A DNA stretch of 64,000 bases, taken from NCBI GenBank assembly GCA_031378375.1, contig JANNEF010000121.1, forward strand, positions 2,650 to 66,649, in the 5' to 3' direction. The position numbers and the translations under genes are program-made. This stretch comes from Verrucomicrobiota bacterium (GTDB lineage Bacteria > Verrucomicrobiota > Verrucomicrobiia > Limisphaerales > JANNEF01). Under the pieces are notes generated by a model. That model had not been told where the DNA came from. It did no database searches and was given only the letters and a program-made list of their open reading frames with translations. Every line of letters starts with the position of its first letter. Within the stretch, counting starts at the first letter, position 1. Positions 648 through 58,546 of this stretch are shown in pieces.

Positions 648-1005
648 CCTTCATTTCGCCCCTTCAGGGCTTGGGATGTTTTTGGGCATCGTTCCCAAGG
701 CGTTGCCTTGGGCTATCGCATTTTGCCGCGTTGCGGCATCGGTCCGGGGCGTTGTGGCATCCGTTGGCCCCAACGGGACTGGCTTTTGCCGCGTTGCAGC
801 ATCCGCCCGCCCCAACGGGGCCGAAGGTGAAAGCCCAGGGCAACGCCCTGGGAAAGGTATCCCACCATATTCCCCAGCCCTGAAAGGGCGGCACCACCTT
901 TGTTGCGCCCTTTCAGGGCTTGGATTGTTTTCATCCATCCATCCCAGGGCGTTGCCCTGGGCTATCTCATTCCTCCCCGTTGGGGCAAATGCCACCGATC
1001 TGGAG
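648..1005. repeat. REP cluster (type A), BIME-like array of short palindromes
   Basis: Units cgccccttcagggc (657-670), cccaaggcgttgccttggg (694-712), gcccagggcaacgccctggg (833-852), cccagggcgttgccctggg (943-961) plus gccgcgttgcggc-type units. All six frames are open and no coding signal is seen. Confidence 0.75.
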
Positions 1006-1013
1006 GTCATCGT

Positions 1014-2580
1014 ATGAGCGCCCAGGCAAACTTCTCCCTGCGCGGGCGCAACCCGGACGTGCTGACGTGCATCGCGAACCTCTCCAACGACGAGGTGTTC
1101 ACCCCGCCGGAGTTTGCGAACCGGATGCTCGACACGCTGGCCGAGGCGTGGGCGGCGAATAACAAGGGCGCAAACCTCTGGGCGGACAAGTCGGTGAAGT
1201 TCCTCGACCCCTGCACGAAATCCGGCGTGTTCCTGCGCGAGATCACCAGCCGGCTGACCCAGGGGCTGGAGCAGGAGATGCCGGACCTGGAGAAGCGCGT
1301 GAATCACATCCTCACGAAGCAGGTGTTTGGCATTGGCATCACGCAAATCACCGGCCTGCTGGCGCGGCGCAGCGTCTATTGCTCCAAGCACGCCCAAGGC
1401 GAACACTCGATTGCCAAAGGCTTCGCCAGCGACGATGGCAACATCTGGTTCCAGCGCCTCAAACACACTTGGGAGGGCGACAAGTGCCAGTATTGCGGCG
1501 CGGGCAAATCCGTTTTCGACCGGGCGACGGGTCTTGAAACCCACGCCTACGCGTTCATTCACACCGACAACATCAAGACTCGGCTCACCAAGATTTTTGG
1601 AGGCAATATGCAATTCGACGTCATCATTGGAAATCCACCGTATCAATTGGCGAGCGACGGCGGCACGCGCGACATTCCCATTTACAACAAGTTTGTTGAG
1701 CAGGCGAAGAAGCTTGAGCCGCGCTACCTCTCAATGGTTATTCCGTCCCGCTGGATGGCGTCAGGTCTTGGCTTGAGCGATTTCCGAAAAGCCATGTTGG
1801 AGGATAGGAACATCAGGAAGCTGATGGACTATGAGCGCATGGACTTGGTGTTTCCGGGCGTGGATTTCGAGGGCGGCATCTGCTATTTCCTTTGGGATCG
1901 AGACAACGCGGGTAAATGCGAAGTAACCACCGTCACCGGCGAGGAGACCATCGGGCCGGCAATGCGCGACCTGAACGAATACGATATTCTCGTGCGCGAT
2001 AGCCGTGGGCTAAACATCCTCAAGAAGGTGCTCGCAGAAGGCGAGCCGTCCATCATTGATATTCTTTCCGCTGACAAGGAATTTGGCTGGACGTCCAACT
2101 TTGATGGATTTCGGGAGGACAAAAAGCCTAGCGATGTCGCGCTGTATTACGGGCGTGCTGGCAAGCGGCTTGTCGGTGGCATTGCCCGTAAAGATGTCAC
2201 GAAGAGTCCACACCTGATAGACAAGTGGAAGGTGATGGTCTCTGCGGCCTACGGCGAACGTGGTGCGCGGCCTGCGATGGTGCTTGGCCCTAGCTTCATT
2301 GCTGAATCACCTTCGGTTTGCACGCAGACCTACTTGTTTTTTTACGTTGGTTCAAAGAAGCACGCTGAAAGTCTGCAAAGCTATCTCAATACGCGCTTTT
2401 TCCGGTTTTTGGTATCGCTGCGAAAAATCACTCAGCACGCGACTCGCGCGACTTACACTTGGATTCCGCAACAGAGTTGGGACCGCCTTTGGACGGATGA
2501 GGCGCTTTACAAGAAATACAAATTGAGCAAGGACGACATCGCCCACATTGAAGCCTGCATCCGTCCGAGGGCCAGCAACG

Positions 2581-2588
<8 letters not shown>
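1014..2588 (+). CDS. N6-adenine DNA methyltransferase (Eco57I-like gamma-class MTase domain)
   Basis: AdoMet motif I-like KFLDPCTKSGVFLREI and catalytic motif IV IIGNPPYQ. ATG at 1014 lies just past the REP array; the ORF-track start at 900 is inside the repeats. The stop overlaps the next gene start (ATGAGTAA, 2581-2588). Confidence 0.8.
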
Positions 2589-5118
<2,530 letters not shown>

Positions 5119-8974: not shown

Positions 8975-9046
8975 CTGTAGCGGCGCTCTGTGAGCGTCGG
9001 CGTTGTCTCGGTTTTTGGTTCGGCGGTCACAGACCGCCGCTACAGG
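8975..9046. repeat. 72-bp palindromic REP pair (type B), left flank of RAYT-2
   Basis: ctgtagcggcgctctgtgagcg(t/c)cgg-N20-cggcggtcacagaccgccgctacagg. Near-identical to 9755-9826. Confidence 0.85.
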
Positions 9047-9073
9047 ATTGCGTGCCCACAGAGCGCCGCTACC

Positions 9074-9760
9074 ATGTTGCGCGTGAACCCGGAAGTTCGT
9101 CCGCCCAGACTCAAACGCCTGGAACGGCTTTTCGTCAATCATCCGCTCTACTTCGTCACCGCGAACACGGAAGACCGAAAACCCATCCTCGCCAACGCCG
9201 GGGTCCATGAAGGATTCCGGAAGTTTTGCGAGACGGGCCTGACGCGGGGCGTGTTCGTTGGCAAATACGTCTTGATGCCGGACCATCTGCATTTGTTTGT
9301 GACGTTTGGTGAGGAATACGAAGCGGCGCTCATAGCGCGTCGCCGGCCACAGTCCGGCGCTACAGCCGGCGACCCTGTAGCGGCGGTCTGCGACCGCCGA
9401 ATCCAACAAGGTGACGCTGCAAAAAAGGCAGTCACAGACAGCCGCTACAACCGTCAGTCGCAGACGGACGCTACAGCAGGCTTTGTAGCGGCGGTCTGCG
9501 ACCGCCGTCTCTCCCCACTTTCGGAATGGATGAAAAGCTTCAAGAACTCGCTCTCGAAAACCTTGCGCGAAATGAATGTTCCCGCCCCGCACTGGCAGAA
9601 GGGCTTCTTCGATCATGTGATGCGTTCCAAGGAATCGTATTCCGAGAAGTGGCTTTACGTGGCAGAAAATCCCGTGCGCAAACATCTGGCCGCGCGTCCT
9701 GAAGATTGGCCGTATCAGGGAGAGATTTTCGCCCTGCAAGCCGGAGGCCACACGCTGTAG
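9074..9760 (+). CDS. REP-associated tyrosine transposase (RAYT), copy 2, carrying an in-frame internal REP cluster
   Basis: HUH motif MPDHLHLFV; C-terminal HWQKGFFDHVMRS and YVAENPVR typical of RAYT/TnpA_REP. ATG at 9074. A ~57-codon insert made of REP units sits between the HUH and Tyr halves. The TAG stop lies inside the right flanking REP. Confidence 0.75.
   Translation: MLRVNPEVRPPRLKRLERLFVNHPLYFVTANTEDRKPILANAGVHEGFRKFCETGLTRGVFVGKYVLMPDHLHLFVTFGEEYEAALIARRRPQSGATAGDPVAAVCDRRIQQGDAAKKAVTDSRYNRQSQTDATAGFVAAVCDRRLSPLSEWMKSFKNSLSKTLREMNVPAPHWQKGFFDHVMRSKESYSEKWLYVAENPVRKHLAARPEDWPYQGEIFALQAGGHTL
9337..9507. repeat. five type-B REP units nested inside the RAYT-2 coding sequence
   Basis: Units at about 9337-9365, 9375-9399, 9427-9450, 9451-9476 and 9483-9507 (consensus (c/t)tgtagcggcggtctgcgaccgccg and its complement). 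By my boundaries the total is 171 bp, a multiple of 3. Confidence 0.7.
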
Positions 9761-9826
9761 CGGCGCTCTGTGAGCGCCGGCGTTGTCTCGGTTTTTGGTT
9801 CGGCGGTCACAGACCGCCGCTACAGG
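9755..9826. repeat. 72-bp palindromic REP pair (type B), right flank of RAYT-2
   Basis: Direct repeat of 8975-9046, with one mismatch seen by eye. Confidence 0.85.
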
Positions 9827-12650: not shown

Positions 12651-13084
12651 GTCCCGGCTGGGATCAGCGACGAGGTAGCTGACAATCGTCGTCTCGATAA
12701 AACGGTTTCCATGTCGGTGCCAGGGCCGACTTTAGTTGCCCGATTCCTCTGGTCAATGGCTCAGAAATGGGCTGATCGGGCCGTTCAGAGATCCACTGAC
12801 ACCGTCGGGGAAATTGCTGGTTGAAGATGGAGAGTTGATGGACGGAAGGGGACACCTCACCCCCCTTCAATTTCCGATTTCAGATTGCCGATTTGCGATT
12901 TGAAGCCGGCCAGAGCGGGCACCTCGCCCGTCCGGCGGTGAGAAAACGAACACCTCACCCATGATTGCTGGCATCAAGTCCCAACTTTCGCACGGAAAAT
13001 TCTTCTGGCGAGCTAAGGGGCTGGGGTGAAATGAGTTGATCGATCGGGCTGGACTTGCGGGAAAAAGTTTTCCATCCTCCGGCC

Positions 13085-14909
13085 ATGTCGAAACCGTCCC
13101 GAACCACTTCCGCCACCGTCTCCGGCGCGCTGGCGGCCATCCAAGTTCAACTGCTCCCGACGGCCAAGGCCCGCGCCCGCCGTCTGCTGGCCAAACATCA
13201 TTATCTGGGCGATGTCCGCGCGGTGGGCGAACAACTCTTTTACGCGCTCACCGCAGCCGACGGCGACTGGCTCGGGGTGCTCGTCTTCTGCGCCGCCTCG
13301 CGCCGCTTGCGCGCCCGCGACCAATGGATCGGCTGGAGCGAGGAGCAACGCCGCCGCCGTCTCCCGCTGGTCGTCAACAACTGCCGCTTCCTGCTCCTGC
13401 CGCACAAGACCTTGCCCAATCTCGGCTCGCGCGCCCTGCGGCTGACGCTCGACCGCCTGTCCGCCGACTGGCAGGCGCGTTACGGCCATCCCGTCGTGCT
13501 GGTCGAAACGTTCGTCGATCCCGAGCAGTTCTCCGGCACCGTCTACACCGCCAACGGCTGGCAGGAGCTGGGCACCACCGACGGCTTTGGCCGCGTGCGC
13601 CGTGACTTCTACGTGCAGCATAAGAAACCCAAGCGCCTCTTCGCCCGGGAACTGTGCCGCAACGCCCGGCGCAGCCTGGCCGCCGACCAACTCCGGCCCG
13701 CGCTGGCTGCGGTCGAAGCCCGCACCCGGCCGCGCAGCCCGCAAAGCCCCGCGCAGATCCGCTCCCTGGTCGAACACCTCAAGACCCTGCCCGACTATCG
13801 CGCGCGCATCGGCATCTATCCGCTGTGGAGCCTGGTCGCCATGGGCGTGCTGGCCCATCTGTGCGGCGCGCCGCGCGGCCCCAAGGAGTGGTCTCTCTTC
13901 GCCAAGGGTCTGAGCCGGGCGCAGCGCAGCGCCCTGGGCGTGCGCCGGCAGGCCGACGGTTATCCGGCGCCCGGACCGTCCACCTTCTGGCGGCTCCTGG
14001 CGCGCATCGACGGCGACGCTTTGGAAAAGATTTTCCTGCAGGTGCAGGAACAACTGCGCGGCCCCGCCCCGCCCGACGAACTCATCGTGCTGGACGGCAA
14101 AGAGCCCCGGCACGGCGGCGGCCACGCCGTGCTCACCGCCGTCACCGTGCCCGGCCAGCATTACCTGGGCAGCGCGCTGGTGGACCAGAAGACCAACGAG
14201 ATCCCCGTCGCGCGCGAACTCTTCAAGAAGCTCGACCTGGACGGGCGCAAAGTCAGCCTCGACGCCCTCCACACCCAGGACCAGACCGCGCGCGAACTGG
14301 TGCTCGCACACGGCGCTGACTTTCTCCTGACCGTCAAAGACAACCAGCCCACGCTGCGGGCGAACATTGAAAAACTCGTTCCCGCCCCGCCGGCGGATTT
14401 TTCCCCCTCGAGTGGCCACGGCCACGCTGGCGGGCAAACGCGAGTTTAACAAAGGCCAGCCCGAAGTGCGGGTGCTGCGCTCCTGTGCCAGCAGCGCCGA
14501 GTCGATGGACTTCCCCGGCGTCCAACAAGTCGCCTTGCTGCGCCGCCACCTGCGCCAGCATTCGCCGGAAACCGTCGCGCTGGTGACGAGCCTGCCGCCC
14601 GAAGAATTGAACGCCGCGCAGTGGCTGGAGTTCAACCGTGCGGCCTGGGGCATCGCAAGCGGCCTGCACCAGCGCCTGGACGTCTCGCACCGCGACGACC
14701 AGTGCCGCGTGCGCCTGCCGCGCTCGATGCGAGTCATCGGGATGTTCCGCCGCTTGAGCAACAGCCTGTTCATGCACTGGCGCAGCCGGCAAAAGAAACC
14801 CCGGCACCAAACCACCACCGACTTCTTCACCGCCATGAACGCCGAACATCATCGCTATGCCCTTCGCTGCCTAAAGGCCCGCCAGCCAAGCTTCTGCTCC
14901 GCTTCGTGA
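13085..14909 (+). mobile_element. ISAs1-family transposase with N-terminal DUF4338 (DruA-like) domain, interrupted by a frameshift
   Basis: N-terminus LLAKHHYLG..WIGWSEEQRRRRL..VVNNCRFLLLP..VETFVDPEQFSGTVYTANGW matches DUF4338. The middle (VLDGKEPRHGGG..LHTQ..FLLTVKDNQP) is a DDE ISAs1-type transposase. Frame 1 stops at 14449, and the C-terminal part (..DFPGVQQVALLRRH..) continues in another frame from 14367 to 14909. Confidence 0.75.
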
Positions 14910-15917: not shown

Positions 15918-17117
15918 TCAAATCAGGTGCCCCAGCTTTTCCCGCTTGGTCTTGAGGTATTTCTGGTTGTGCCGGTTGGGGGCCACGCGGATGGGCACCT
16001 GCTCGACGATTTCCAGGCCGTAGCCATCCAGCCCCACGAGCTTTTTGGGATTGTTCGTCAGCAGCCGGATGGTTTTCAACCCGAGGTCCACCAGGATTTG
16101 CGCGCCCAGCCCGTATTCCCGCAAATCCATTTTGAAGCCGAGCTTCAAGTTCGCCTCCACCGTGTCGTAGCCGCGCTCCTGTAATTTGTAGGCCTTGATC
16201 TTCGGCGCCAGCCCGATGCCGCGCCCTTCCTGCCGCATGTAAACGATGACGCCCCGACCTTCCGCCGCCACCTGCCGCATCGCCTGCTGCAGTTGATGCC
16301 CGCAATCGCAGCGGCGCGAGCCGAACACGTCGCCCGTCAGGCACTCGCTATGCACGCGCACCAGCACGCCCTGCTTGTTCGCCACGTCGCCCTTCACCAG
16401 CGCCAGATGATGCTGGCCGTCGGTGTTGGACCGGTACAGATACAAGTCGAAGTCACCGTAATCGGTTGGCAGCTTCACCACTTCGACGCGCTCGACCAAC
16501 TTCTCCCGCGTGCGACGAAACTTGATCAAGTCTTCGATGGAACAAATTTTCAGCCGGTGTTTGCGCGCGAACTTGAGCAAGTCGGGCAGCCGCGCCATCG
16601 TGCCGTCGTCGTTCAACACCTCGCAGATGACACCCATGGGCCGGCACCCGGCGAGCTTCGCCAGGTCCACCGCCGCCTCCGTGTGGCCCGCGCGCTGCAA
16701 CACCCCGCCCGCCCGCGCCCGCAGCGGGAAGATGTGCCCCGGCTGCACGAGGCATTCCGGGAGCGCCGTCGGGTCCGCCATCACTTGAATCGTCCGCGCA
16801 CGATCCGCCGCGCTGATGCCGGTGGTGACGCCCCGGGCGGCGTCCACGCTCACCTGGAAATCCGTTTTGAACGTCTCACGGTTCTGCGTGACCATCTGCT
16901 CGATGCCCAACTGCTTGAGCCGCTCGGAAGTCGTCGGCACACAGATCAACCCACGCCCATGCTTGGCCATGAAGTTGATGGCCGCCGGCGTTGTGTGTTC
17001 GGCGGCGAGGATCAAGTCGCCTTCGTTCTCGCGGTCGGCGTCGTCCACCACGATCACCATTTTGCCTTTCCGCAAATCGGCAATCACGGCGGCGATGGAA
17101 TCAAACGGGTCTTTCAT
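15918..17117 (-). CDS. ribBA: bifunctional 3,4-dihydroxy-2-butanone-4-phosphate synthase / GTP cyclohydrolase II
   Basis: DHBPS half ([14 protein letters not shown]), GCH-II half ([21 protein letters not shown]..). Start taken at MKDPFDSI (17117), not the track start 17216. Confidence 0.9.
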
Positions 17118-17266
17118 GCGCGGCGGCGAGCTTAGACGGGCGACCGGCGGGTGCCAGCAACAAACTTCATGGCTGAAACGATCCCGCCAGCCACGCGGCC
17201 GGAATGGCGCGGCCATGTTTTCCCCTTGGCTTGCCCGCCCGGTTGACGGTTTACTCTCGCCACCTG

Positions 17267-55000: not shown

Positions 55001-55921
55001 CTACGCCGCCTGCGCCTGCGCCACGTTGATCACGGCCTCGGTGCTCGCGGGGCCTTCCCCGCGCGAATTCACACCCACGACCTTGTAGCGATACTCGCCG
55101 GCGGCCAGACCCGTGGCCGTGTACACACCCGGCTTGAGCAAGTCCTCCTCCACCAGCGTGAACTCCGACTCGCCCGGCCCCTGGCGCCACGCCTGGAAAC
55201 TCGTCGCGTGCGGCGCGTCGAACTCCAGCCGCACCGCCCCCGCCGCCGGACTCTCCGCCTTCGTAACCTCCGCCTGACCTGGTTCCTGCGTGGCCGGGGC
55301 CGTCGGCACCCGGTCAATCGTCTCCCGCTCCGCCGTGCCCTCGGGGAACTGCCCGCGCCCCTGCGCCAGCGCCGCCGCGGCGAAATCCGCCAGCACCTGC
55401 TGTTGCGCGTGCAGAAAACCCTCGCGCAACTGGAACGGCTGATCCGCCGCCGCTTCCGCGATCTGTGCGCTGTCAAACGCCGTCTTCAACGTGTCGAACG
55501 CCGTGCGGGTCAGCAGCCCCACCTTGAACGGGCCCGCCCACCCCGGCGGATTCGGCAGCCCGGCCCACGCCTCCGAAATGCCCAGCGCACGGGTGATCGT
55601 CTCGTCATACGATTGGTCCTGCACGGGCAGACTTTCGATGCAGTTCAGGCTGGCGGGATCCTTGCGATAGCACGACTTCATGCACTGATACACGCTCACG
55701 CAGGCGTCGTGCAGCGCGGCGTGGGCGGCCTGCGTGGCGCCGCGCGCGGAATTGAGCGCGTTGAACTTGGCTACGTAATCCTGGCGCACCACCTTGGCCG
55801 AACCGATGATCGAGTCCACGATTGACACCGTGCTGTCATCCGGTTTGTACACCGGAATGACCGCCATGGCGGCGCGGATGTAATTGACCTGCGTGAGATG
55901 GAAGTTGAATTCTACTAACAT
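55001..55921 (-). CDS. hypothetical protein with C-terminal fibronectin type III-like domain
   Basis: Start at MLVEFNFHL (55921). C-terminus ..AVRLEFDAPHATSFQAWRQGPGESEFTLV..GEYRYKVVGVNSRGEGPAS is FN3-like. The N-terminal ~200 aa are unrecognised. Confidence 0.55.
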   Translation of the reverse strand: MLVEFNFHLTQVNYIRAAMAVIPVYKPDDSTVSIVDSIIGSAKVVRQDYVAKFNALNSARGATQAAHAALHDACVSVYQCMKSCYRKDPASLNCIESLPVQDQSYDETITRALGISEAWAGLPNPPGWAGPFKVGLLTRTAFDTLKTAFDSAQIAEAAADQPFQLREGFLHAQQQVLADFAAAALAQGRGQFPEGTAERETIDRVPTAPATQEPGQAEVTKAESPAAGAVRLEFDAPHATSFQAWRQGPGESEFTLVEEDLLKPGVYTATGLAAGEYRYKVVGVNSRGEGPASTEAVINVAQAQAA

Positions 55922-56357
55922 ACGATGACTGCCTTTCTTTTTTTTGTTATTATTTTGACGGACACGGCCCGGAGACCCCACCCATTGTTTTCTGAACCCG
56001 GAGCCGCCACCATTGACAACCCCGTCATACTGGGTGAATCGGCAGTCTGCGAAATCTGTTCACTAAAAAATGCTCTGATGAGCATTTTTATTTTCGGAGT
56101 GGAGCCGTCATCTGGGGACGGAAGGCGCGGGCGCAAGCGGATGGCACGGTAAGGAGTGGATGGGGTTGGGGTGAGGGCGGAGTAACCACGCTCTCGTGGC
56201 CCGCGCCAAAAATGAAGTGACCTGGCTCACGCCGGATGCTACGAAATGGACATGGACGCGATGAATCCCGACACGTCGAGACTGGACGCCGCTAATCGAG
56301 CTGGATGAAGCGGCTGAAAAACACATTGATGCGTTGATGAACAAATACCGTTGATAT

Positions 56358-57392
56358 ATGGCAAACAAACCAACGACTCGAAAACGCCTCACTGTCGTTG
56401 AAATCAACGAGGCAATCGCCGATTTCAAAGCCTGGCTTGATGACGCGCGAAGTGCCCGGTCAGCAGATAAAATTCCTGAACATCTCAAGCGTTTGGCGTT
56501 TCTCAGTGCAAAGAACTCCACTTTGCATCACATTTTTACCTTCATTCTGCCGAGCGCTGATATAGGTTCCATCCTGGAACGTTTCAAGAACGTCGAGTCG
56601 GTTGGGTTTAGCCGGCTTGTTTCAATCGAATGGCCGATCGATCCAGATGCGCGACTTGCCATGCAGTTCGCACTCCTCATTGCCGTGGGTGAAGCGCGAA
56701 TTGAATGGAATAGATTGTTTGAATATTCGTTTGGTACCTATGGTGACTTCTTGGCAGAATTATTTATTCCAGCGACTCGAGATTTCGAGCGTCTGCTCAA
56801 ACGCATCAAGCAAGAAATTCTGAGCCAAGTGCCTGATGAGGCAGCTAAGGCAAAACTATCCATGGCTACCAGACCACAGTTTTCATTGGACTTGTTCATT
56901 AGTCACAGCAGTAAGGACGAACAAATCGCCAAAGCTTTGATCGAGTTTCTGCGGTTCACTTTGGCTATTCCTCCCGAGCGTGTGCGATGCACAAGCGTGG
57001 ACGGCTACAAGCTATCGGCAGGAGTGCCCACGGAACTCGAACTAAAGCGCGAAATCCATGAAAGCCGATGTTTCATCGGACTCGTCACTCCAAACAGCCT
57101 CCAATCATCTTTCGTGTTATTCGAATTGGGCGCCCGCTGGGGATCAGGCGCCCGACTGATTCCGGTCCTTGCTGCTCGGCAAAAGGCATCGGAGTTAAGA
57201 CCTCCACTTTCAACCTTGAATGCGCTTGATTGTGAGAAAGGGCAGGAAATGGAGCAACTTGTTCATGAACTTGCGCGTGAGCTAGGGAAAAACGTGCCGC
57301 TTCCTGCTACATACGAGAGCCAACTGAAAGCCTTGGTGCAAGCTGCGGGAGGGTTACGGCCACATAACAATTTCTTTGCCGAGCTCGTGTGA
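56358..57392 (+). CDS. TIR-domain protein with unknown ~170-aa N-terminal domain
   Basis: C-terminal half: DLFISHSSKDEQIAKALIEFL (TIR beta-A/AA loop), CFIGLVTPNSLQSSFVLFELGARW (candidate catalytic Glu). The gene is visibly lower in G+C than its flanks. Confidence 0.75.
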   Translation: MANKPTTRKRLTVVEINEAIADFKAWLDDARSARSADKIPEHLKRLAFLSAKNSTLHHIFTFILPSADIGSILERFKNVESVGFSRLVSIEWPIDPDARLAMQFALLIAVGEARIEWNRLFEYSFGTYGDFLAELFIPATRDFERLLKRIKQEILSQVPDEAAKAKLSMATRPQFSLDLFISHSSKDEQIAKALIEFLRFTLAIPPERVRCTSVDGYKLSAGVPTELELKREIHESRCFIGLVTPNSLQSSFVLFELGARWGSGARLIPVLAARQKASELRPPLSTLNALDCEKGQEMEQLVHELARELGKNVPLPATYESQLKALVQAAGGLRPHNNFFAELV

Positions 57393-57494
57393 CTGTATGC
57401 ACATACAGACGACCGCCCCCTCACTGAGAATCCGCTGCGACTGGTCCTTCGGACACAGTCGCGCTCCGGGGAGGTTATCGCGCGGTTGCGGGCA

Positions 57495-57994
57495 AATCCC
57501 GTCGGGGCGGTTAGGGTGTTTTGGCGTCGGAAGCCGCTCTACCCGTCCGGAAGGGCGCTGTACCTGTCCGGGAGGCCGGTCATTCCGTCGGCGAGGCTGT
57601 TGTACCTGTCGGGAATCTGGCCTACCGGTCGGGGAGGTCGCTGTACCTGTCAGGAAAGCTGCCATTCCTGTCAGGAAGGCTGCGGTACCTGTCGGCGAGG
57701 CTGGCATATCTGTCAGGAAGGTCGCTGTACCTGTCAGGGAGGCTGCTACACCACAAATATCAGGCTGCCTGACAGGTACAGCAGGCTCCCCGACGGAATG
57801 ATCGGCCTCCCGGAGAGGTACAGCGGCCTCGCCGGGCGGGGAAACGCCCTTCGCCGCCGGAGGACCGGGCGGCGCGACGGGTGGAACAGATTGCCCGGCG
57901 CGTGTGCCGGCCTCCCGCGCCGGGTGAACAGCCTGGCTGACGGAGTGATCGGGCGGGCCGACGGGTGGAACGCCTTGCCCCGGCGACGTGAACC
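57495..57994. repeat. dyad-symmetric array of ~21-bp tandem repeats (about 12 forward plus 11 inverted units)
   Basis: Left arm 57495-57748, units like gtacctgtcnggnaggctgcn alternating with cattccgtc/atatctgtc-type units. Centre acaccacaaatatc at 57749-57762. Right arm 57763-57994 holds reverse-complement units (ngcngcctnccngacaggtac). Confidence 0.8.
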
Positions 57995-58161
57995 TAAAAC
58001 ACGCAGTTGAACAACCAAGGAACCAAGGAACAAAGCTGGAATTCAAAAAGATGCGCCGGGAAGTGAAAAATCCTCCTTCGCTTGCACAGGTCTCGCTTCG
58101 CTGCAAAACAGCGAAGGGCCTGCCATCCGCAGCCTGGAGCGCGGGCGAACGTGATCGCCCT

Positions 58162-58192
58162 CCTTCGCCCGGTGCTGCGCTCCGGGCGAAGG
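58162..58192 (-). terminator. hairpin immediately 3' of tmRNA (terminator/processing-like; no U-tract)
   Basis: ccttcgcccgg-N9-ccgggcgaagg, an 11-bp perfect stem that starts 2 nt after the encoded CCA. Confidence 0.35.
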
Positions 58193-58193
58193 A

Positions 58194-58546
58194 TGGTGGA
58201 GGCGGGGGGAGTTGAACCCCCGTCCCTGACAAACAAACCAGCCGCGACTACATGCTTAGTCCGGAGAAGGTTTTCTGCCGTGCGATAGCGTCCGAACTCG
58301 AGACGCACAGCCTAGTCCGCATGAAGTTTTCTCGGTCGCCGGCGCGCAGTCTCCGCCGTCAACCATGCCTGCTGTTGCGTTCAGCCGGCGTAGCAGGTGT
58401 CCACCGGTGAACGTCGAGGCAATTAAGCCGCGAGAGCTAGTTCTGTATTAGCTTTTGATTTTTGGTTCGATGATTAACGAGGCCAACGAACCGTCCTCGG
58501 CATGCCGCCTCTGGCGCATCTCTCAGGTCGAAACCAGTACGCCCCC
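58194..58546 (-). ncRNA. ssrA: transfer-messenger RNA (tmRNA)
   Basis: 5' GGGGGCGTACTGGTTTCGAC pairs with the 3' ..CGCCTCCACCA, including the G3:U alanine identity pair. T-arm GGGGGTTCAACTCCCCC. Internal tag frame GCT AAT ACA GAA CTA GCT CTC GCG GCT TAA (58452-58423) encodes ANTELALAA. Confidence 0.9.

Follow-up and report, generated by a model that had tools for sequence, protein, structure and literature searches.

What kind of element is a long palindrome of short tandem units that lies between two genes of a bacterial core chromosome, and does it do anything there? The question is raised by a contig of a Verrucomicrobiota bacterium, of which a stretch of 64,000 nucleotides (hereafter the window) was analyzed. 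Positions 57515-58006 of the window form an imperfect palindrome of ~490 bp, which is built of 21-bp units with a 42-bp super-period and has a TIR gene on one side and the tmRNA gene (ssrA) on the other. The initial annotation of this DNA had described a dyad-symmetric 21-bp array between these two genes, and all nine of the units it quoted were found where it had placed them. The array is real and has the form of a long imperfect palindrome of tandem units, without demonstrable function. The features of the locus are as follows (window positions, strand and description):

56226-57350, + strand: imported segment, with a UbiD-like remnant and DNA similarity to the loci of TIR homologues
56358-57392, + strand: TIR-domain gene, 344 aa (Pfam TIR_2, E 1.7e-11), outside the array
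57393-57462, + strand: spacer that separates the array from the TIR stop codon, with two small hairpins read from the sequence
57515-57747, + strand: left arm, ~11-12 forward 21-bp units, consensus GTACCTGTCAGGGAGGCTGCT
57748-57761, no strand: dyad centre, ACACCACAAATATC, 14 bp with 9 A/T
57759-57821, - strand: inner right arm, three well-kept reverse-complement units
57822-58006, - strand: outer right arm, diverged units with an 84-bp higher-order repeat, motif CGACGGGTGGAAC
58194-58546, - strand: ssrA (tmRNA), tag ANTELALAA, outside the array

When positions 57476-58010 are written in rows of 21, forward units occupy ~57518-57747 and reverse-complement units follow from 57759 on, giving a layout of ~12 forward units, the 14-bp centre and then ~11 units in reverse complement. 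Clear units of the left arm span 57539-57747, one of them (57602-57621) being 20 bp long, and a single 1-bp indel was found across the ~23 units of both arms. The super-period arises from the alternation of GTAC-type and CATTC/ATATC-type units in the left arm. Both spacings proposed earlier were recovered by Tandem Repeats Finder, which reported a period of 21 at 57593-57746 (7.4 copies) and a period of 42 at 57540-57745 (4.9 copies, score 193). The limits of the array had been given as 57495-57994, which is broadly right, but the complementarity runs to ~57515 and 58006 (GTGTTTT / AAAACAC); likewise, the centre had been put at 57749-57762 and actually lies one base further left. The A+T content of the centre is 64% versus ~32% in the arms, and a perfect 15-bp stem (GCTGTACCTGTCAGG / CCTGACAGGTACAGC) surrounds it. 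Inverted arms were detected over 91 nt (77%, 57523-57613 / 57768-57858), 72 nt (72%, 57677-57748 / 57758-57829) and 53 nt (72%, 57549-57601 / 57927-57979). The palindrome is thus imperfect, unlike chimeric artefacts.

The closest pairs of units are found across the dyad: the three units of the inner right arm match left-arm units at 18/21 (R57759/L57727), 18/21 (R57780/L57581) and 19/21 (R57801/L57560) positions. Similarity among units is highest near the centre and decays outward. The outward degradation noted in the initial annotation is therefore correct as regards divergence, but it misses that the outer right arm (57822-57994) has a repeat structure of its own, in which the higher-order copies 57863-57896 and 57947-57980 are 82% identical. 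This outer part is also richer in G+C (the whole right arm, 57763-57994, has 74% G+C versus 64% in the left arm) and still pairs with the outer left arm, through the 53-nt match given above. The best pairing registers are offset from each other by whole units, and several of them compete.

With all units co-oriented, the conserved positions are C5, G7-T8-C9, G11-G12, A14-G15-G16-C17, G19 and T21, and the variable ones are 1-3, 6, 10, 13, 18 and 20, the latter without a 3-base rhythm. In many units a 9-bp palindromic core, CCTGTCAGG, can be recognized, and the outer units are devoid of the core motif. A shorter core, allowing at most one mismatch, occurs on the + strand at 57543, 57564, 57585, 57647, 57668, 57689, 57710 and 57731, and on the - strand at 57763, 57784, 57805, 57931 and, out of phase, at 57620; only three matches to it lie elsewhere in the 64 kb.

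The array is beyond chance expectation. A 20-mer consensus with up to three mismatches occurred six times in the window, always within the array, and never in 100 shuffles. That a long imperfect hairpin could form, as previously suggested, is borne out by strong folds of either strand: the RNA fold of the + strand has -338 kcal/mol (z -10.05), that of the - strand has -293 kcal/mol (z -8.5), and folding with DNA parameters gave z -9.9. The fold of the + strand is 45 kcal/mol better and contains 27 G-U pairs versus 11, and G is in excess on the + strand in both arms. In gapless pairing registers, the ratios of G-T to A-C mismatches were 6:4, 5:4 and 6:1.

Two simple explanations concern whether there is an array to be explained at all and whether it is a gene. 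The contig is metagenome-assembled and chimeric reads can yield palindromes, which made a collapsed or chimeric repeat conceivable. The Logan assembly of run SRR20217213 contains a contig of 2017 bp that is 100% identical to window positions 56206-58222, including the array and both flanks. As this independent assembly agrees base for base, the array is not a one-off assembly artefact; moreover, the palindrome is only ~72-77% complementary and its flanks are unique. An artefact is hence hardly credible, and the array stands against this objection raised in the initial annotation.

A gene for a heptad-repeat protein, either a 174-aa ORF at 57486-58010 (+ strand) or a 292-aa ORF at 57354-58232 (- strand), would agree with a period of 21 bp, that is, seven codons, and the sequence GGAGG stands 11 nt before a TTG at 57486. 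All six frames had been reported as open; in fact, each strand has a single stop-free frame across 57497-57994, and the other four frames contain 3-6 stops each. The pN/pS values among 15 units ranged from 0.71 to 1.67 over the six frames, and the absence of a 3-base rhythm in the variable positions also speaks against coding. Because of the dyad symmetry, any ORF through the array would encode two unrelated types of repeats. The 292-aa ORF extends into ssrA as well as into the TIR gene, and no homologue of it was found among 5.8 billion proteins at E values up to 0.001; for the 174-aa ORF, only unrelated low-complexity repeats were matched among 1.84 billion cluster representatives. No Pfam family was detected in ORFs of the array, and the conserved heptad-repeat family that the initial annotation had considered as a counter-explanation did not appear in these translated searches. 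We conclude that the array is non-coding, as had been thought likely, and regard a protein gene as very improbable. However, a gene caller has already turned the array into a 'protein' of 288 aa in the Logan contig, which should be taken as a warning for annotation.

The array is located in a core-chromosome setting. The order of genes is mraZ-mraW-ftsI-murE-murF-mraY-murD (40-50 kb), queA, genes for an ABC-F ATPase and an MFS transporter, a hypothetical gene (55001-55981), the TIR gene, the array, ssrA and genes for MlaD, MlaF, MlaE and a YHYH protein, so that the array is enclosed by the dcw cluster and queA on one side and by the Mla genes on the other. Both flanking genes are as described in the initial annotation, which had also reported that no Rep, Par or recombinase gene is adjacent. 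Indeed, among Pfam-annotated neighbours there were no Rep, Par, recombinase or transposase genes within 8 kb of the array and no Tus/RTP-like or HTH gene over the same distance; no DnaA box (at most one mismatch) was found within 4 kb, and no parS-like site near the array.

The TIR gene lies in a stretch of low G+C content (50% at 56001-57000). Immediately before it, at 56226-56357, we observed a pseudogene remnant of the C-terminus of a UbiD-like protein (tblastn match at 56274-56345, E 1e-7, with an in-frame stop), and DNA similarity to the loci of TIR homologues with 70% identity extends over 56282-57350. The left neighbour of the array has thus been horizontally acquired and is decaying. 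The 70%-identical homologues carry an extra C-terminal domain of ~140 aa, and more distant ones are accompanied by a small overlapping downstream gene and reside in defence islands with MmeI, NERD and OLD/UvrD-type genes. The window's TIR gene has neither the C-terminal domain nor the downstream partner gene of its homologues and is therefore an imported and truncated fragment. No repeat array was found at seven loci of TIR homologues (45-72% identity) in other contexts, and the array is thus not a component of the TIR defence gene; the two are neighbours and not partners. The combination of TIR and a 21-nt period also brought SPARTA/pAgo, retron and DRT systems into consideration, and these were rejected as no Argonaute, APAZ or reverse transcriptase gene is nearby.

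On the other side, hairpins resembling terminators and followed by T-runs are present on the minus strand at ~58040-58196, between ssrA and the array. Between the end of the TIR gene and the array, no terminator was found. The spacer contains one hairpin at 57393-57408 (CTGTATG..CATACAG) and a second one with a UUCG loop at 57437-57462 (GCGACTGGTCC-TTCG-GGAC..CAGTCGC), and neither is followed by a U-tract.

Twelve viral contigs of IMG/VR share the last 32 nt of ssrA without a mismatch; half of them (6/12) lack a tmRNA gene, and in one contig a gene for a large serine recombinase overlaps this fragment. From this we infer that the 3' end of ssrA commonly serves as an integration core, beyond which the DNA is prone to turnover. 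The sequence common to many organisms also explains why the Logan contig breaks at 58222, and the break was not accepted as the border of an island. We found no att duplicate of the 3' end of ssrA above the shuffle background, and the genes annotated between 40 kb and the right edge of the window included no integrase. An att-flanked island at ssrA was accordingly rejected, as it lacks both a direct repeat at a far boundary and an integrase. A 9-mer shared by ssrA and the unit (TCCCTGACA) is within chance expectation. In none of five genomes with relatives of MlaD (61-70% identity) is ssrA located beside MlaD.

To find relatives of the array, several collections were searched. In the genome collection, at least 120 loci matched a three-unit pattern, and no relative was found among the matches listed; the pattern was loose and the loci were mostly irrelevant, so this counts as weak evidence. 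The matches listed comprised heptad repeats within coding sequence as well as further 21-bp arrays, three of which (L034, L032 and L003) are near-perfect and unrelated. A metagenome scan with a 42-bp two-unit pattern returned 16 loci, none of them related, examples being L135, in which the match is the PDRYYDR tail of a secreted protein, and actinobacterial tails rich in G, Y and Q. Scans of the viral collection revealed no relative of the array, only iteron-like repeats of phages: four contigs (L155-L157 and L159) have 21-24-bp repeats with the core CATTCCTGTCGGGGAGG inside a replication-initiator-like gene of the HTH_36 type, and another (L158) has three 22-bp repeats, CCCTGTCTGGAAGGGTC. The likeness of the phage repeats to the array is partly forced, as 20 of the 33 positions were fixed in the search pattern. 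No blastn match to the array was obtained in plasmids (PLSDB) or GenBank phages, and no second copy is present in the 64-kb window. In Rfam 15 nothing reached the gathering threshold, and even at E values up to 10 only sub-threshold noise was returned, the best match inside the array being DUF2693-FD (24.9 bits versus a gathering threshold of 44.5). As far as can be seen the array is single-copy, and on these searches it appears to match nothing described, in line with the earlier remark that the arrangement is unlike known elements.

We then compared the array with known classes of repeat elements. It had been said not to be a CRISPR array, and this holds: the units abut head to tail, the absence of spacers between them rules out this class, and no cas genes or leader were found within 8 kb. 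Type III toxin-antitoxin repeats of the ToxI type are direct tandem RNA repeats that directly precede the toxin gene, from which a terminator separates them; they were rejected as the present array lies downstream of the TIR gene and is half inverted. REP/BIME elements are extragenic, form hairpins, occur between convergent genes and can stabilize the upstream mRNA. Their units are 35-40 bp long, alternate in orientation and number hundreds per genome, whereas the units here are direct within each arm and only one locus was found in 64 kb.

A resemblance to iteron or centromere-like arrays had been proposed in the initial annotation, and the 21-bp phasing and the opposed arrays indeed agree with it. 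Iteron origins contain phased direct repeats of 17-22 bp, with which the period of 21 and the ~12 forward units agree. As in iteron arrays of plasmids and phages, whose repeats measure 17-24 bp, the spacing is close to two turns of the helix, and the core of the unit is similar to the phage repeats CATTCCTGTCGGGGAGG mentioned above. In known iteron origins, however, 3-8 iterons, most of them direct, are accompanied by a rep gene and by a long unwinding region rich in A+T; examples are the lambda origin inside gene O and SaPI origins, whose repeats flank an A+T-rich stretch. The array has ~23 units in two opposed sets and neither an A+T-rich unwinding region nor a DnaA box nor an adjacent rep gene, and its 14-bp centre is too short for an unwinding element. 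Plasmid centromeres share with it two clusters of short repeats around a central core and the combination of direct and inverted orientations; in R1 parC, two sets of five 11-bp repeats surround a promoter, and pSM19035 has arrays of heptads. Such centromeres sit directly upstream of the par operon that they regulate, but the array has no par genes, no promoter-driven gene and no parS-like site. The part of the proposal that concerns function is thereby made unlikely, as partner gene, unwinding element, DnaA boxes, parS and relatives are all absent within the ranges searched. A replication fork trap consists of opposed polar Ter sites at the terminus, bound by a protein of the Tus/RTP type, and of these features the opposed orientation is present in the array.

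Foldback-type transposons, such as FB of Drosophila, Galileo and Tetris, have long inverted ends that are internally repetitive (PMC3573991, PMC4079207). Like the array, they consist of inverted arms of short tandem units with little between them, show higher-order repeats and are unstable in the number of units and the length of the arms, and terminal inverted repeats made of tandem units, a feature of foldback elements and MITEs, are present here. On the other hand, foldback elements are eukaryotic and multi-copy and have transposase-coding relatives and target-site duplications, whereas the array is single-copy within the 64 kb and has none of these; no target-site duplication was found at 57515 / 58006. 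Ends of the Tn7/Mu type were also not recognized, with no TGT...ACA termini or 5-bp duplication at the outer ends and no transposase within 8 kb. Apart from repeat geometry, the features that define foldback elements, iteron origins and centromeres are thus absent. The closest described geometry is that of the internally repetitive inverted ends of eukaryotic foldback-type transposons, and the closest functional analogues in bacteria are iteron origins and repeat-array centromeres.

The explanation we prefer, tentatively and with somewhat less than even confidence, is that a palindromic minisatellite, non-coding and self-generated, arose in the variable DNA downstream of ssrA and acts at most as a passive hairpin. 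A 21-bp (42-bp) tandem array would have grown by replication slippage, a template switch may then have copied it in inverted orientation, and gains of units, duplications of blocks and correction between the arms would have reshaped it later. The pairing registers offset by whole units, the close pairs across the dyad, the outward decay of similarity, the single 1-bp indel and the 84-bp block all point to a tandem array of which an inverted copy was made and which keeps changing by whole units and blocks. The site would be poorly constrained DNA beyond ssrA, which also contains the horizontally acquired, truncated TIR gene and the UbiD pseudogene fragment, and no dedicated protein partner would be needed. 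Since no terminator follows the TIR stop codon, the TIR mRNA probably includes the array as its 3' tail, which would fold into an imperfect hairpin of ~230 bp; this hairpin could end or stabilize the TIR transcript and shield ssrA from convergent transcription. Orphan status, the core-chromosome setting and the lack of partner genes, the absence of a link to the TIR gene, the imported and decaying flank, the hairpin potential and the recurrence of this architecture elsewhere (see below) support the minisatellite reading. If the array is only such a by-product, it would be a clean bacterial case of a minisatellite folding back into a long imperfect palindrome.

Some observations go in other directions. 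Bacterial genomes usually lose DNA that is of no use, and long palindromes are prone to instability; that 490 bp persist nevertheless hints at tolerance or use, which is a point against the minisatellite reading. So is the exact 21-bp phasing, equal to two helical turns, over ~23 units together with conservation along the whole unit, which is the pattern of protein sites, and the better fold of the + strand could mean selection on RNA. As regards a terminator role, no canonical U-tract follows the array hairpin on either strand, so that this role is hypothetical.

These observations bear on three rival explanations. One is that a protein encoded elsewhere, or since lost, binds cooperatively to the two opposed sets of helically phased 21-bp sites, in an iteron- or centromere-like manner or as a two-way barrier similar to a fork trap. 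We consider it unlikely, although several features agree with it: not only does the period of 21.0 bp correspond to two helical turns, but the super-period corresponds to four; positions are conserved along the unit, many units contain the palindromic core, and the opposed arrays surround a relatively A+T-rich centre. The phage repeats further show that motifs of this kind can be iterons, with the reservation about pattern-forced positions made above. The surroundings disagree, as neither a candidate gene for such a protein (Rep, Par, Tus/RTP-like or HTH, within 8 kb) nor an unwinding element, DnaA boxes or parS sites accompany the 14-bp centre, the setting is that of a core chromosome, and no similar array was found in plasmids or phages. 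In addition, 23 sites are far above the known sets of iterons or centromere repeats, and the core motif is no longer present in the outer units. The + strand could instead produce a functional hairpin RNA with or after the TIR mRNA, for instance for RNase III-dependent control of TIR or as a double-stranded RNA product. The difference in folding energy, the G-U pairs and the G excess in both arms would fit this, as would the open path from the TIR stop codon to the array and the UUCG-loop hairpin just upstream of it. Nevertheless, the bias in gapless registers is weak and mutational skew could explain it, any DNA palindrome folds well as RNA, Rfam gave no match, and nothing similar lies downstream of TIR homologues, all of which makes a functional RNA improbable.

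The third rival is a non-autonomous mobile element of the foldback type, or a pair of abutted transposon ends, whose arms would be tandem binding sites of a transposase with little or no cargo in between. In its favor are the architecture, which is that of Foldback, Galileo and Tetris in eukaryotes (PMC4079207, PMC3573991), and the position of the array next to ssrA, an insertion hot spot. We nevertheless judge it quite improbable on several counts: no second copy exists in the 64 kb, no relative appeared among the matches from the collections scanned or in translated searches of billions of called ORFs, and target-site duplication, TGT/ACA termini and a nearby transposase were all sought in vain. 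Ends of the Tn7 and Mu types contain several sites of ~22 bp, and Tn7-like elements target sites beside conserved genes, which would also agree with this rival. However, the best-kept units of the array are those at its centre, whereas a transposase would work on the outer ends. If a function in binding protein or as RNA were true, the array would represent a new kind of phased and opposed repeat element at gene ends.

Among the loci loosely matched in the genome collection, a second array with the architecture of the one in the window was found in a Holophagales MAG (L080, contig CAWJGT010000025.1). At positions 2265-2640 of this locus, eight forward cores, GGTCGGACAGT, follow each other at exact 21-bp spacing (2267-2445), and three reversed cores come after them at 42-bp spacing (2462-2556). 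The array begins 9 bases past the stop codon of a ferritin-like gene, in a chromosomal setting with AtuA, GAF, CheD and CheA and with no mobile genes nearby; as far as can be told, it has not been described previously. The two arrays share the forward-then-reversed layout, the position after the stop codon of a gene and long spurious ORFs through them, but in the Holophagales array there are fewer reversed units, the fold is weaker (z -3.6), and a ferritin-like gene takes the place of ssrA. Beyond seven positions forced by the search pattern, its unit (GGTCGGACAGT plus 8 variable nt) is unrelated to that of the window.

The same architecture with an unrelated unit fits a recurrent mutational process better than one inherited element, although the recurrence also keeps the idea of a class of elements open. 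Such a class, that is, a recurrent and undescribed bacterial cis-element of opposed, helically phased 21-bp arrays after gene stops, bound by a trans-encoded protein or forming a hairpin RNA and blocking transcription or replication in both directions or acting like a centromere, seems to us a doubtful proposition. If function were true, the unrelated Holophagales example would make the class testable by comparison. Dyad arrays were also screened among the fetched loci by self-inverted BLAST, which mostly revealed arrays of internally palindromic units (L022, L037 and L109), a different architecture. One further locus (L063) contains an in-frame 21-bp array within the gene of an AMP-binding enzyme.

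Within positions 56226-57392 of the window, the TIR gene is accompanied by the tail of a UbiD-like gene, which is pseudogenised and has an in-frame stop. An intact UbiD-like gene lies directly upstream of the TIR homologues that are 70% identical, and these homologues are 482 aa long, with an additional C-terminal domain compared with the copy in the window. G+C content is 50% over 56001-57000, the stretch holding the TIR gene. The copy in the window looks like a truncated and imported fragment.

More distant TIR homologues (45-48% identity) were identified at two other loci, L151 (5001-6586) and L153 (5001-6381). In both, a small overlapping gene encoding 201 or 134 aa, with no Pfam match, is located downstream of the TIR homologue. 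The neighbours of these homologues include defence genes of MmeI, NERD and OLD/UvrD type. This suggests a TIR defence system of two genes, the second part of which is fused in some relatives and absent from the window.

Two features flank the palindromic array of 21-bp units (57515-58006): a stable UUCG-loop hairpin at 57437-57462, in the spacer that separates the TIR stop codon from the array, and a short tandem repeat (AACCAAGG x 2.9) at 58013-58035, between the array and ssrA. On L001, a Logan contig identical to this part of the window, the gene caller placed a 288-aa protein across the array (L001 1149-2015, corresponding to window 57354-58220 on the minus strand); this call overlaps both ssrA and the TIR gene and is almost certainly spurious. 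The final 32 nt of ssrA (58194-58225) are identical in 12 viral contigs, half of which (6/12) lack a tmRNA gene. In one of the 12 (L166), which also encodes a phage SmpB, a large serine recombinase gene ends over the ssrA fragment.

Repeats of 21 bp were also observed in other genomic settings. Another array with dyad symmetry is present in a Holophagales MAG (L080, CAWJGT010000025.1, 2244-2640), immediately preceded by a ferritin-like gene. Its unit, unrelated to that of the window, consists of the core GGTCGGACAGT and 8 variable nt, and the cores are arranged as eight forward followed by three reversed. In a Planctomycetaceae MAG (L063, 6795-6990), seven 21-bp units (GGTGGGGCAGACATTCCTGTC) and one inverted unit are in frame within a 685-aa AMP-binding enzyme ORF and encode GGADIPV heptads; the same ORF carries a second, proline-rich repeat farther upstream.

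In four phage contigs from IMG/VR (L155-L157 and L159), two 21-bp repeats and approximately four 24-bp repeats (TCCTGTCGGGGAGG..., CTGTCACCCTAGAGGGCGGTC; e.g., L157 2208-2332) are located within an HTH_36 replication-initiator-like ORF. They look like an origin embedded in its own initiator gene, which resembles lambda gene O, where the origin lies inside the initiator gene.

Elsewhere in the window, distant from the array, defence or mobile-type genes, additional repeats and an Rfam match were noticed:

106-191 / 653-738, inverted repeat of 86 nt (72%)
809-853 / 942-986, inverted repeat of 45 nt (89%)
900-5118 and 13055-14449, genes for an Eco57I-family methylase, a T5orf172 + ResIII helicase protein and a DruA-like protein with a DDE_Tnp_1-associated domain
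9005-9051, 9369-9415 and 9785-9826, three copies of a ~45-nt element (GTCTCGGTTTTTGGTTCGGCGGTCACAGACCGCCGCTACAGG) in alternating orientation
16911-17014 (+), Rfam match to V_AS9, a Vibrio antisense RNA (53.2 bits, gathering threshold 50)

Both inverted repeats lie close to where an Eco57I-type methylase gene begins, in the leftmost part of the window, and copies of the GTCTCGGTTTTTGGTTCGGCGGTCACAGACCGCCGCTACAGG element match at 81-83% and are spaced about 370-410 bp apart. The V_AS9 match is antisense to the ribBA ORF that contains it (minus strand, 15918-17216), and conservation of the coding sequence may account for it.
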